Source: a virus (lineage: Duplodnaviria; Heunggongvirae; Uroviricota; Caudoviricetes). Taken from it: a DNA stretch of 8,634 nt. The stretch is from IMG/VR virus record IMGVR_UViG_2541047932_000013, positions 1-8,634 of that record. The stretch is one strand, 5' to 3'. Position 1 is the stretch's first letter, and each line of letters opens with the position of its first letter. Positions 5,170-8,329 of this stretch are shown piece after piece. Under the pieces are notes generated by a model that saw nothing but the letters and a program-made list of their open reading frames with translations, ran no database searches and was not told the DNA's origin. Both the position numbers and the translations under genes were made by a program.

Positions 5170-5519
5170 TTGAACTTCCCCGGACAAAATCGACTCATCT
5201 AAAGATTTACAGCTCTTTTTATTATCAATATGTTAAAAGTAAAATAAACAGATGTTCAATAACACGAATACAAAAACGTGCTGAAATTCAATGAATCCAT
5301 TTCTGTGTCATCAATTAATAGTGATAAACATCCGGCTTCTTCCACCATCGCACCGGACAGGCGACTATGAGGGAACAACGCCGCGCTCCGTTAACGCGGT
5401 AAACCCCGGTGTGTATCGTTTTTGATTATCCCCGCACACTCGCGCAGAGGAGTCTCCCTGTCGGGCTGCGGTCTCTGTTAATGAGGGAATACAGCGACGA
5501 TACGGCGCATCAACAAAAC

Positions 5520-5987
5520 TTATTTCAGGCACTGAGTGCGGATATAGTCCTGTGCCCCTTCCAGTTGCTTGTGCATCGTCATCAGCCGCTCTCTGAGGGT
5601 GAAATAATCCCGTGTAACGGTGTCTGCCAGTTGGGGGCCGGTTGCATTATCCACGCCGGAGGTGGTGGGGGCTTCACGCACGGAGCCTGGACAGGTGGCG
5701 TTGATCCGCAGGCGCTTACGACCAGCGGCAACGTCAGCGCGAAGAGTTTCATTTTCAGCTCTCGCATCGGCTAATTCCTTCGTGTATCTGGCATCAAGCG
5801 CAGCGACATCTCGCTGGCGCTGCTGCATGTCAGTAATAGTGGCATTCGCCAGTTTCAGCTCACTGACTTTTTTATCGCGCTGCGCTTTGTAGGTGATGGC
5901 GTTATCGCGGTAATGATTCAGCCCCAGACTAAGCACACCACAGGCTACCAGCAGGACAATAATCACCACACACAGAACACGGTTCAT
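5520..5987 (-). CDS. Rz: Rz i-spanin (inner-membrane spanin subunit)
   Basis: Very close to recalled lambda Rz ([16 protein letters not shown]…[33 protein letters not shown]…[17 protein letters not shown]). The real start is most likely the internal ATG at 5985-5987 ([13 protein letters not shown]…, N-terminal TMD); the six-frame ORF's extension to 6071 is probably not translated. Confidence 0.9.
5582..5767 (-). CDS. Rz1: Rz1 o-spanin (outer-membrane lipoprotein spanin subunit), embedded in Rz in the +1 frame
   Basis: [61 protein letters not shown] matches recalled lambda Rz1 (…LPLVVVGC…[30 protein letters not shown]…). Lipobox VSAC and a proline-rich tract are present; the gene is fully nested in Rz. 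Confidence 0.88.
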
Positions 5988-6086: not shown

Positions 6087-6200
6087 TCACGATTTCAGCG
6101 CAATGACCAGTTTTGCCAGCCCATACAGCATCGGAGACACAGCAATACCAACAGCCACCCACTTAATAGCAAAAGCCAGCGCTCTGCTGATGTCATCAGT
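6087..6200. repeat. Direct repeat, copy 1 (~114 bp, ~94% identical to 6352-6465)
   Basis: Hand alignment: 7 mismatches in 114 nt against the copy 265 bp downstream. The flanks differ on both sides. Confidence 0.9.
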
Positions 6201-6209
6201 CACTGTCAC
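6087..6209 (-). CDS. Candidate 40-aa membrane peptide, a paralog of the 6352..6534 ORF; no ATG, putative GTG start coupled to the upstream stop
   Basis: The minus frame encodes (M)TVTDDISRALAFAIKWVAVGIAVSPMLYGLAKLVIALKS. It differs from the downstream copy by one I/V substitution despite 7 nucleotide differences. GTG at 6207-6209 overlaps the TGA of the preceding ORF (GTGA). Confidence 0.3.
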   Translation of the reverse strand: MTVTDDISRALAFAIKWVAVGIAVSPMLYGLAKLVIALKS

Positions 6210-6337
6210 CCCAGCAGCCCCGACGAAGACAACATCATCCAGGCCATGGAAAGAAAAAGAGCAACCAGCATTAGTGAAAATGAAATGCCGACAATTACAC
6301 AGAGGATCTTCGCCAGCGTTATGAGTTTGTCTGACAT
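6206..6337 (-). CDS. Candidate 43-aa hydrophobic membrane peptide
   Basis: MSDKLITLAKILCVIVGISFSLMLVALFLSMAWMMLSSSGLLG, with a strong SD (GGGAGGA) 6 nt upstream of the ATG at 6335-6337. It begins 14 nt after the stop of the upstream small ORF. The six-frame ORF 6206..6427 has an unlikely N-terminal extension. Confidence 0.4.
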   Translation of the reverse strand: MSDKLITLAKILCVIVGISFSLMLVALFLSMAWMMLSSSGLLG

Positions 6338-6351
6338 GCTTAATCCTCCCT

Positions 6352-6465
6352 TCACGATTTCAACGCAATGACCAGTTTTGCCAGCCCATACAGCATCGGG
6401 GACACAGCAACACCGACCGCCACCCACTTAATGGCAAAAGCCAGTGCTCTGCTGATGTCATCAGT
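6352..6465. repeat. Direct repeat, copy 2
   Basis: See copy 1. Confidence 0.9.
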
Positions 6466-6534
6466 TACAGGCGCTTTCAGTTCAAGGCCATTTTTCATAG
6501 TCAACCTCAACAGAATTCGTTTATACTTCGCCAT
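6352..6534 (-). CDS. Candidate small membrane peptide (60 aa from the ATG at 6532-6534, or 48 aa from the ATG at 6496-6498)
   Basis: …MKNGLELKAPVTDDISRALAFAIKWVAVGVAVSPMLYGLAKLVIALKS. GAGG lies 6 nt upstream of the 6498 start and GGGAG 3 nt upstream of the 6534 start. The C-terminal 38 codons are duplicated at 6087-6200. Confidence 0.4.
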   Translation of the reverse strand: MAKYKRILLRLTMKNGLELKAPVTDDISRALAFAIKWVAVGVAVSPMLYGLAKLVIALKS

Positions 6535-6567
6535 GTTCTCCCTTGCCTTACTCAAGGTCAGAAACAC

Positions 6568-6600
6568 AAAACCCCGCTTGGTGCCAATAAACGGGGTTTT
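6568..6600. terminator. Bidirectional intrinsic-terminator-like hairpin between the endolysin and the small-peptide ORFs
   Basis: AAAACCCCG (6568-6576), a 15-nt loop, then CGGGGTTTT (6592-6600): a 9-bp GC-rich stem. T-rich sequence follows on the plus strand (TTACTTTTATT) and on the minus strand (TTTTGTGTTTCTG). Confidence 0.5.
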
Positions 6601-6690
6601 TACTTTTATTCACTTACGTTTCGCCAGTTCGCAGGATTTCATGTTATCCGCCCGCGTGGCCATGCCTTATTTTTCAGCAAAATATTCTGC

Positions 6691-7224
6691 TTATCTGTCG
6701 ATACCCCAGCACGCCAGCGCGCTCTCCTGGTCACGACGGGATACCTGACCGTAGCAGTTGTTTGAACGAATACGGCAGTCTCTGCCACCGTCCTTAATCC
6801 ACCAGCGAATCGCCTCACATGCTCCCCTGCGATCACCAGCATTAATTCGTCTGTAAAACGTCGACGGGAAACACTTACCGGGACCAATGTTGTACGGACA
6901 GAATGACGCGATCCCCGCTTTCTGGGGTTCGGTCAATGGCACTTTGATGTTTTTCTCCACCCATGCCAGCGCCTTATCACGTTCGATGGCGTTAACCTGG
7001 TCGCATTTCTCCTTCGACAACTTCATGCCCGGGACGACAGGTTTACCATCCACCAGAATGGCACCGCGACAGATGGTCCAGATACCCGCGCCATCACGGT
7101 ATGCCGTGGTGTGGTTACCTTCCTTTTCATCCAGAAACTGGTCGAGAATGTCAGGCGCAGGCGCACCAGCGGCAATCAGCGCCAGAACGGCAGCCGACAG
7201 GCCGTATTTGATTTTGGTGTTCAT
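6691..7224 (-). CDS. R: Endolysin, T4-lysozyme-type (GH24), with an N-terminal signal-anchor-release-like hydrophobic segment
   Basis: 177-aa ORF. N-terminal KYGLSAAVLALIAAGAPA hydrophobic stretch, followed by a lysozyme catalytic E…D…T spacing (EKEGNHTTAYRDGAGIWT). It is partnered with an S21-type pinholin. Confidence 0.85.
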   Translation of the reverse strand: MNTKIKYGLSAAVLALIAAGAPAPDILDQFLDEKEGNHTTAYRDGAGIWTICRGAILVDGKPVVPGMKLSKEKCDQVNAIERDKALAWVEKNIKVPLTEPQKAGIASFCPYNIGPGKCFPSTFYRRINAGDRRGACEAIRWWIKDGGRDCRIRSNNCYGQVSRRDQESALACWGIDR

Positions 7225-7260: not shown

Positions 7261-7818
7261 CTAAATACGCACTTTAAGATAAGTCAGCCCCGGATGAAGC
7301 CAGTAAGCCGGCACTTTTTTAAAGGGTGGAGTATTAAAATCACGAAGAAGAGCCTCCCGCACAATTGCATCCTTATCAGCACCACTGGCCAGCGCTTCAA
7401 TCTCAGCGGCTACCTGAAGATATCCCATGCAACGGCCAACGCGCTTCATCAGCCCCTGCTTTTTATTGTTCTTCAGGTAATCAATGGCAAATTCAATGAG
7501 CTCCTCACTGTGCTGGTGCAATGGAGGTGTTACTTTCCCATTTTCTGAGATGGTTATTTTCCCGGCATCACCGGATACAACAAAGGATGGCCGGTTACAC
7601 TCCCATTCCAGGTTACTGAAATTATCATTATGAATACTGAAACACTCTGAGAGATTTCTGCTCATCACTTTCCGACAATAATCGTCAAACGCAGCAAACT
7701 GCTCATCGCGGCGTTTTTTTTCATCTTCAGAAGGCATCAGCGTCGACAGTTTTTTATTCAGTTCAGCAATTTCATTTTCCAGACGACTGAAGCGCTGATT
7801 CATTTCTTCATGGTTCAT
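7261..7818 (-). CDS. Hypothetical 185-aa soluble protein with an N-terminal coiled-coil-like segment, inserted between holin and endolysin
   Basis: ATG at 7816-7818 lies directly after the holin stop (7822-7824), with GGGGAG upstream. No TM segment or signal peptide is visible; the N-terminus reads EEMNQRFSRLENEIAELNKKLSTL. The sequence is visibly more AT-rich than the neighbouring lysis genes. No family recognised. Confidence 0.6.
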   Translation of the reverse strand: MNHEEMNQRFSRLENEIAELNKKLSTLMPSEDEKKRRDEQFAAFDDYCRKVMSRNLSECFSIHNDNFSNLEWECNRPSFVVSGDAGKITISENGKVTPPLHQHSEELIEFAIDYLKNNKKQGLMKRVGRCMGYLQVAAEIEALASGADKDAIVREALLRDFNTPPFKKVPAYWLHPGLTYLKVRI

Positions 7819-8069: not shown

Positions 8070-8108
8070 AAGGAAAACAAAAAGCCGCCAGTGTCGCCCA
8101 CTGACGGC
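8070..8108 (-). terminator. tR'-like intrinsic terminator upstream of the holin (minus strand)
   Basis: On the minus strand: stem GCCGTCAGTG / CACTGGCGGC (10 bp, one mismatch; plus 8084-8108) followed by TTTTTGTTTTCC. It ends about 40 nt upstream of the holin start, the position of the terminator read through by Q in lambdoid phages. Confidence 0.5.
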
Positions 8109-8187
8109 CAACGCCGGGAGCCGTGATTATGGCATTCAGGCTCTGCTAAAAATGCCAGATAACATTCCGGCTCCCCCCCTGATTCAG

Positions 8188-8214: not shown

Positions 8215-8287
8215 CACCCATCACTGTCTGTCAGAAAATGTACTGCCAGATATAAGTATCATGTGAAACCCAACTATCCTTCTTAGC

Positions 8288-8329
8288 CAGTACTTCTCCG
8301 ACGAAAGTCAGTACTGGCTGTTTTTTTAT
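8288..8329 (+). terminator. Plus-strand intrinsic terminator hairpin abutting the stop of the partial upstream ORF
   Basis: CCAGTACT…AGTACTGG (8-bp stem, 15-nt loop with an internal GAC/GTC pair) followed by CTGTTTTTTTATT on the plus strand. The minus-strand reading has only an A-run before the stem and no U-tract after it. Confidence 0.45.

Follow-up and report, generated by a model that had tools for sequence, protein, structure and literature searches.

In lambda, tR' is located directly after pR', and termination has been mapped there. Both tR' and the StxS terminator of Stx phages are intrinsic terminators of the late transcription unit, which unmodified RNA polymerase obeys and Q-modified polymerase passes. 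At lambda tI/sib, only the read-through RNA forms a longer duplex. The late regions of lambdoid phages, for example of HK97 and in lambda-family genomes, also carry morons, which are autonomous insertions of a promoter, a gene, and a terminator. A moron site is mentioned in PMC4104026, and the terminated late product of the Stx phages, StxS, is a stable small RNA (PMC7547250). The phage L genome paper describes terminators as common within the late operons of lambdoid phages and their role as unknown, and suggests that they could act either in partial termination, or by stopping transcription that began without the antiterminator (PMC8022706).

Here, we analyzed a hairpin in the lysis cassette of a prophage of the Shiga-toxin-phage-like lineage. 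The whole stretch of DNA containing it, 8,634 nucleotides from the IMG/VR record IMGVR_UViG_2541047932_000013, is called the window. The hairpin is probably a Rho-independent (intrinsic) terminator, as predicted from its sequence, which ends a non-coding R tail of ~90 nt on the minus strand. In our best reading, the tail and the hairpin would together form the end of the holin-endolysin module, at a site where extra genes have entered between R and Rz. The genes accepted at this site are small membrane peptides in the window, and an antirepressor in 933W-like phages.

As with tR' and StxS, this would be an intrinsic terminator of a late unit. It differs from tR' by being located several genes downstream, past R, and by being a predicted terminator only. 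Rho-independent terminators have likewise been predicted inside the late operon of the phage L / P22 group, which has a single antiterminated promoter (PMC8022706). The phage L terminator, however, is found at the end of the procapsid gene module, whereas the window hairpin is part of the lysis cassette, follows a conserved tail of ~90 nt, and is placed at the R-Rz insertion site. The likeness to morons lies in the extra genes between conserved late genes, in their being bounded by a terminator, and in the sharp homology breaks. In contrast to morons, the predicted terminator of the window stands ahead of the inserted genes and not behind them. Furthermore, no promoter was seen in the 33 nt between the hairpin and the next ORF, of 60 aa, and therefore the small ORFs would have to be read from the late transcript. 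A description of this particular terminator was not found in the literature searched. We regard it as a conserved example of an already known element type, of low to moderate interest.

Layout of the lysis cassette

The window carries its lysis genes, holin, R, and Rz/Rz1, on the minus strand (Table 1). A Nu1-like small subunit of the terminase, and the long ORFs that follow it, are on this strand as well. The window does not extend to the pR'/Q region; in syntenic prophages, a Q gene is found upstream. The endolysin R shares 90–98% of its amino acids with the R proteins of Stx phages. It has a hydrophobic N-terminal segment of the signal-anchor-release (SAR) type, and is similar to rrrQ and to the 933W R.

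An earlier note on this DNA had placed a hairpin at 6568–6600, inside the lysis block and between R and the genes for the small peptides, Rz, and Rz1. The location proved exact. The R stop codon is at 6693–6691 and the next ATG at 6534, so that the hairpin is found 90 nt past the one and 33 nt ahead of the other. It leaves uncovered the Shine-Dalgarno sequence of the 60-aa membrane ORF (AAGGGAG, 6544..6538).

Table 1. Features of the window around the hairpin, with nucleotide diversity among related loci where available.
Feature	Position	Strand	Evidence or description	Diversity
Terminator-like hairpin, tail TTTTTTTATTAT	8284–8320	+	−18.1 kcal/mol	
Terminator-like hairpin, tail TTTTGTTTTC	8083–8109	−	11 bp, −20 kcal/mol; 55 nt between its end and the holin ATG	
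Phage 21-type holin, 68 aa	7822–8028	−	Pfam PF04971, E = 8.9e-33	
ORF between holin and endolysin, 186 aa	7261–7821	−	PHROG 1085, without Pfam match	
Endolysin R, phage lysozyme, 177 aa	6691–7224	−	Pfam PF00959, E = 1.4e-24; PHROG 7	
Codon positions 1 / 2 of R				0.012 / 0.023
Codon position 3 of R				0.153
R 3' untranslated tail, conserved, non-coding	6601–6690	−	Sequence comparison	
A-rich tract GUGAAUAAAAGUA, 5' of stem	6601–6613	−	Nearly invariant	0.004
Terminator-type hairpin	6568–6600	−	Folding and conservation	
5' arm, AAAACCCCGUUU	6600..6589	−	Sense RNA	0.000
Loop, AUUGGCACC	6588..6580	−	Sense RNA	0.108
3' arm, AAGCGGGGUUUU	6579..6568	−	Sense RNA	0.03
Distal U-rich tail GUGUUUCUG	6559–6567	−	Directly after the 3' arm	0.119
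Beyond the tail			Mosaic	0.37
Small membrane ORF, 60 aa	6352–6534	−	PHROG 1115, E = 2.6e-42; first gene 3' of the hairpin	
Small membrane ORF, 43 aa	6206–6337	−	PHROG 4906	
Small membrane ORF, 28 aa	5989–6075	−	PHROG 4493; C-terminus ...IRWW, abuts the Rz start	
Rz spanin, 155 aa	5520–5987	−	Pfam PF03245, E = 1.4e-48	
Rz1, embedded in Rz	5582–5767	−	Pfam PF06085, E = 4.4e-20	

Several other observations were made in the window. The slot of the 186-aa ORF is occupied in most relatives by a YdfR (DUF1327) gene of roughly 100–115 aa. Small membrane peptides (PHROGs 1115, 4493, 3246, and 4906) seem to be shuffled in the interval from R to Rz. A partial tandem duplication is found there on the minus strand, at 6350–6470 and 6087–6210; the duplicated part encodes the last 38 residues of the membrane ORF of 60 aa (VTDDISRALAFAIKWVAVG.AVSPMLYGLAKLVIALKS), with the truncated second copy placed after the 43-aa ORF.

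Upstream of the holin, the two strong terminator-like hairpins of Table 1 face each other in a gap of 300 nt, and neither has an Rfam match. For prophages, sRNAs of the PasA/PasC class have been reported from the position immediately 5' of the holin. The same insertion region, close to the late promoter, also houses RNAs of the AgvB/AsxR type, arranged in convergent pairs. At the other end of the cassette, positions 5331–5564 are 94% identical to the segment just beyond Rz in Sakai Sp10 that holds the Hfq-binding sRNA HnrS (EcOnc11). HnrS represses hha (PMC13502914). Judging from this similarity, the window probably carries a copy of HnrS at about 5398–5446, on the plus strand, opposite in direction to the late genes and pointing at Rz and the hairpin.

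Fold of the hairpin

On the plus strand, AAAACCCCG (6568–6576) pairs with CGGGGTTTT (6592–6600), leaving a loop of 15 nt. This is the stem of 9 bp that had been described as GC-rich. The length was right, and the 5 G-C and 4 A-T pairs make it GC-rich in its core only. The T-tracts claimed on both sides were found as a T-rich run 3' of the stem on each strand, TTTTTACTTTTATT on the plus and TTTT GTGTTTCTG on the minus strand.

The sense RNA, which is that of the minus strand, folds further. G.U pairs extend the stem to 12 bp, with a loop of 9 nt and a free energy of −15.7 kcal/mol, and the base of the stem is CCCCG/CGGGG. The last four U of the 3' arm join the distal tail in the tract UUUUGUGUUUCUG, whose U-rich start, UUUUGUGU, has 6 U in 8 positions; the U-tail is interrupted by a G. 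The plus-strand fold has an internal mismatch and −13.1 kcal/mol, and is followed by the U-tract UUUUUACUUUUAUU. The complement of this plus-strand T-tract is the A-rich tract in front of the sense stem, a series of A-R-N triplets.

Intrinsic terminators consist of a stem-loop with a G-C-rich base (typically 5–14 bp, with a short loop) and a U-rich tract directly 3' of the stem, at a non-coding site downstream of a gene and on its strand. The sense strand of the hairpin has such a stem-loop, followed directly by UUUUGUGUUUCUG, 90 nt past the R stop. Together with the A-tract upstream, this is the anatomy of an intrinsic terminator that the earlier note had recognized. When the RNA was cut at the end of the stem, which mimics the polymerase on the U-tract, the terminator hairpin was part of the minimum-energy fold in 47 of 50 tail variants.

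The word “strong”, on the other hand, is an overstatement for the window copy. A G-to-A change opens its upper stem (A.C mismatch), and because of it the copy reaches −15.7 kcal/mol, compared to about −21 kcal/mol for the family consensus. On the sense strand, most relatives have a stem of 14–15 bp and a loop of 3–5 nt. By energy alone, the window copy is unexceptional (z = −1.6; 13 of 200 shuffles fold equally well), and in a custom scan it ranked fifth on the minus strand and seventh on the plus strand among the terminator-like sites of the window. A standard terminator scan missed it, because its loop is longer than 8 nt. The consensus form in a relative, with 15 pairs and a loop of 3, was in contrast the best site returned by the same scan, and this only for the sense strand. 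That the hairpin is more than a chance structure is grounded in its conservation across relatives, and not in the energy of the window copy.

Searched against Rfam 15 at gathering thresholds, the whole window gave no match. The only match in a permissive search was below threshold, to the rimP leader on the plus strand (25.6 bits versus a gathering threshold of 47; E = 0.45).

Distribution and downstream genes

A query of 501 nt across the hairpin matched 316 phage records, mostly of Stx-converting phages, and 2122 of the 5426 complete E. coli genomes. Many of the matches end at the hairpin or a few bases past it, and in 933W-like phages they end just ahead of it. In H-19B, the hairpin is present in an R-Rz spacer of 300 nt.

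A 16-mer conserved in the R tail, used to scan viral contigs, found 116 related loci, which split into five classes by what follows downstream. Four of the classes have different sets of small membrane ORFs, each with the same hairpin in front. Homology between the classes breaks 6–15 nt past the stem, and although the break falls inside it, the tail 3' of the stem is U-rich in every class. A single broken stem pair was found in ~15 of roughly 106 loci sampled through the 16-mer.

The fifth class is formed by 933W-like phages, and includes Sakai Sp10, Sp11, and BP-4795. Here, homology is lost ~10 nt before the stem, and a replacement hairpin (AGGCACC-GUAAU-GGUGCCU) is followed by UUGUCAUUUCUG, and then by the antirepressor gene. 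The replacement hairpin has a U-rich tail on the sense side only. In Sakai Sp10 and similar copies it is degraded (−8 kcal/mol, z = +1.5), and therefore a hairpin at this site is not indispensable. Among the loci with this type of hairpin (L012, L042, L124, which is Sakai Sp10 7385–7425, and L369, which is BP-4795), some copies have an intact stem of 11 bp. A G-to-A change weakens those of Sakai Sp10 and similar prophages. A second hairpin, of 7 bp and without a U-tail, follows the replacement hairpin.

To keep the sampling unbiased with respect to the tail, 80 loci were picked by the R protein alone. A recognizable R end was found in 75 of these, with the first hairpin in 68 and the second type in the other 7. 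In a search for other genomic contexts, every copy found of the first hairpin followed an R tail, and the R tail was always attached to R. The AT-rich 16-mer GTGAATAAAAGTAAAA, used in a scan of genome contigs, matched 120 unrelated genomes, none of them with the hairpin.

Where R directly overlaps Rz, as for rrrQ/rzpQ of the K-12 Qin prophage and in phage mEp460, neither the tail nor the hairpin is present. The mEp460 R belongs to the same family (92.6% protein identity). This indicates that the tail and the hairpin go with the genes inserted between R and Rz. It also bears out the statement that an internal terminator is not part of the canonical cassette, since these two R genes overlap Rz and leave no spacer.

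Conservation and strand of the hairpin

Diversity was calculated from the R-sampled set, with 49 distinct sequences (Table 1). When 24 third codon positions of R were drawn at random 20,000 times, no draw came down to the diversity of the stem, which points to purifying selection. Among 37 distinct variants of 70 nt, pairing in the stem was kept in 95.9% of the cells. The changes seen were one-sided (G-C to G.U, U.G to U-A, and U-A to U.G), and no compensatory double substitutions were found among the 37 variants. The sequences are too similar for double changes, and for this reason the support for pairing comes only from the one-sided changes and the low diversity.

Low diversity could partly result from frequent recombination at a module joint, rather than from function. 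Taken further, the hairpin region would be a passive linker, shared by lambdoid phages for recombination and conserved through constant exchange. The breaks in homology on both sides of the hairpin, and the presence of at least five different downstream modules after the same tail, are what such a joint would produce. Exchange alone, however, does not predict that the loop varies (0.108) when the arms do not (0.00–0.03), nor that changes in the arms mostly preserve pairing on the sense strand. We therefore consider a purely passive joint quite unlikely, and a predicted terminator remains our preferred reading.

Which strand is under selection is indicated by two of the stem pairs. In most variants these are G.U pairs on the sense RNA, and C.A mismatches on the antisense, which suggests that selection acts on the sense RNA. 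The 37 variants have a mean fold of −18.8 kcal/mol in sense and −13.3 kcal/mol in antisense, a mean difference of about 5 kcal/mol, and in 36 of 37 variants the sense fold was the more stable. These comparisons favor a structure maintained on the minus strand, which is the strand of the lysis genes.

As an alternative, the earlier note had proposed the termination of antisense transcription. A bidirectional or antisense terminator at this place would halt plus-strand transcription before it reaches R, with leak-through from an HnrS-like sRNA beyond Rz as a possible source. The plus-strand T-tract does exist, and UUUUUACUUUUAUU is a good U-tract whose complement is nearly invariant; this A-tract is even more conserved than the distal sense tail (0.004 versus 0.119). 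In addition, 5331–5564 is a copy of the Sakai region with HnrS (PMC13502914), and here HnrS would be on the plus strand. The proposal is nevertheless weakened by the C.A mismatches in the upper stem, and by a plus-strand fold that is weaker in nearly all variants. A bidirectional terminator would be located between convergent units, with symmetric tracts and a stem that is stable on both strands. Here, both tracts are present and conserved, and the antisense stem has the C.A mismatches and the mean of −13.3 kcal/mol. The site has no adjacent convergent gene: all neighbors are on the minus strand, and the nearest plus-strand unit is the HnrS-like region ~1 kb away. For HnrS, an intrinsic terminator of its own has been reported (PMC13502914). 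Moreover, the standard scan flagged only the sense strand, and the replacement hairpin of the 933W-like phages has its U-rich tail only there. We consider a bidirectional or antisense terminator very unlikely.

A related proposal is a plus-strand antisense RNA of ~70 nt, running from a promoter-like site at 6498–6527 (TAGTCA-18-TATACT) to the hairpin. It would be complementary to the ribosome-binding site of the 60-aa ORF, as in a type I toxin-antitoxin system. For this, the promoter-like match has the right distance from the plus-strand terminator. The window, however, has fewer promoter-like matches than shuffled sequence (3 versus 7.8). The −10 hexamer is TACACT in 10 related loci, the −35 is changed in 9, and where other modules follow downstream, the hairpin is retained although the promoter-like site is missing. 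With hexamers that are not conserved, this RNA was rejected as hardly credible.

The R tail

The tail between the R stop codon and the hairpin is itself structured. It starts with a stop-proximal hairpin (6691..6676), followed by a variable patch and by an almost invariant block, CGGAUAACAUGAAAUCCUGCG (6650..6630), in which a local hairpin GGAU/AUCC is possible. The practically invariant blocks of the tail, TAAGCAGAATATTTTGCTGAAAAAT and GGCGGATAACA(C/T)GAAATCCTGCGAACTGGC, are as invariant as the non-synonymous sites of R. In the consensus fold, two further small hairpins are predicted 5' of the terminator. Judging from this conservation, the R tail is not a neutral spacer.

No conserved ORF was found in the R tail or across the hairpin among the related loci. 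A small ORF in the tail (MATRADNMKSCELAKRK) was rejected, as its start codons are not conserved. In H-19B-type loci, a GTG-started ORF continues across the hairpin into the following gene. It was rejected as well, because the window closes this frame, and because a proper Shine-Dalgarno sequence and start are found past the hairpin. The tail was also considered as the decayed 5' end of an older Rz, and this was rejected, as local alignment to the Rz of mEp460 and to K-12 rzpQ was no better than for shuffles.

One potential explanation for the invariant blocks is a small RNA. In this case, the R tail and the terminator (~125 nt) would be released from late or leaky transcripts as a 3'-UTR-derived, Hfq-binding regulator. 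The predicted layout of two small hairpins, an A-R-N-rich linker, and a terminator is consistent with this, and so is the invariance of the blocks. Prophages of this group encode many sRNAs, one of which arises from early termination of the late transcript (PMC7547250; PMC4104026). Against it stand the lack of a promoter-like site in or before the tail (window scan and inspection), the lack of an Rfam family match, and a U-tail broken by a G. Furthermore, the spacers from R to the next gene in Sakai contain neither an Hfq-crosslink peak nor a top-100 intergenic region, according to published tables. This is a weak test, as both Sakai prophages examined, Sp10 and Sp11, have the hairpin of the second type, and the late genes were silent in the cultures. 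Overall, we consider such an sRNA highly improbable.

The second invariant block is complementary to the 3' arm of the terminator, its tail, and the next few bases. The potential long-range duplex has 15 bp, a bulge, and 3–4 bp, with −23.0 kcal/mol in the window and −26.5 kcal/mol in H-19B. Dinucleotide shuffles were as good in 1 of 1000 cases for the window and in none of 1000 for H-19B. In the window, the two folds of the whole tail are nearly equal (−35.6 versus −35.0 kcal/mol). The tail and the hairpin could be modeled as a regulatory RNA device, in which the block CGGAUAACA(C/U)GAAAUCCUGCG would re-pair, in Q read-through RNA, with the 3' arm of the terminator, the U-tail, and the next bases. 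If so, the duplex of ~19 bp could be a processing site similar to tI/sib, or the released tail could be a small RNA, and the fate of the holin-endolysin message would be coupled to the antitermination state.

Such a terminator, whose read-through RNA could form a longer alternative duplex (−23 to −26.5 kcal/mol), is reminiscent of lambda tI/sib. The difference is that the complementarity here is weaker in one downstream class, where 35 of 1000 shuffles are as good, and absent in phages with the other hairpin type, which still keep the same block. In addition, the tail alignment holds no covariation in support of the long-range helix. For these reasons, we find the device extremely doubtful. 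To our knowledge, there is no RNase III cleavage at this tail or hairpin.

Proposed function and implications

As a terminator, the hairpin would act on polymerase that is not modified by Q, and that could have read through tR' or started spuriously in a lysogen. On such polymerase, the stem of 12–15 bp would form, and the transcript would be released at the U-tract. The small peptides, the spanins, and the terminase downstream would then be left untranscribed. During lytic growth, Q-modified polymerase would ignore the hairpin and transcribe the whole late operon, as suggested by the established behavior of lambdoid late operons. Termination, Q read-through, and the shielding of the small peptides and spanins from leaky expression, all of which the earlier note had put forward, are what we infer from sequence.

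The hairpin could also stabilize the 3' end of an RNA. After endonucleolytic cleavage, it would block 3'-to-5' exonucleases, the holin-endolysin RNA would outlive the distal part, and termination would be incidental. A stable sense stem kept between the cistrons of one operon fits this role. Furthermore, considering the known antitermination by Q, modified polymerase should not stop at the hairpin in lytic growth, so that any lytic role must act on the RNA. Yet a stabilizer needs neither a U-tract nor an A-tract, and here the A-tract and the four proximal U hardly vary, and the tail is U-rich across unrelated downstream modules. We consider this role unlikely, and continue with the predicted terminator.

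If the hairpin terminates as predicted, it would set how much of the late operon is transcribed past the endolysin, in a lysogen or by polymerase that has escaped antitermination. The part affected would include the spanins and the packaging genes as well as the small membrane peptides. This does not alter how lysis or antitermination is understood. For annotation, the hairpin and its tail provide a conserved non-coding element in about 40% of the complete E. coli genomes, and a clean landmark for the comparison of lysis cassettes. ORFs that are called across the element are spurious. For the Stx-type phages themselves, the hairpin marks, within a few bases, the joint at which they swap genes between R and Rz.
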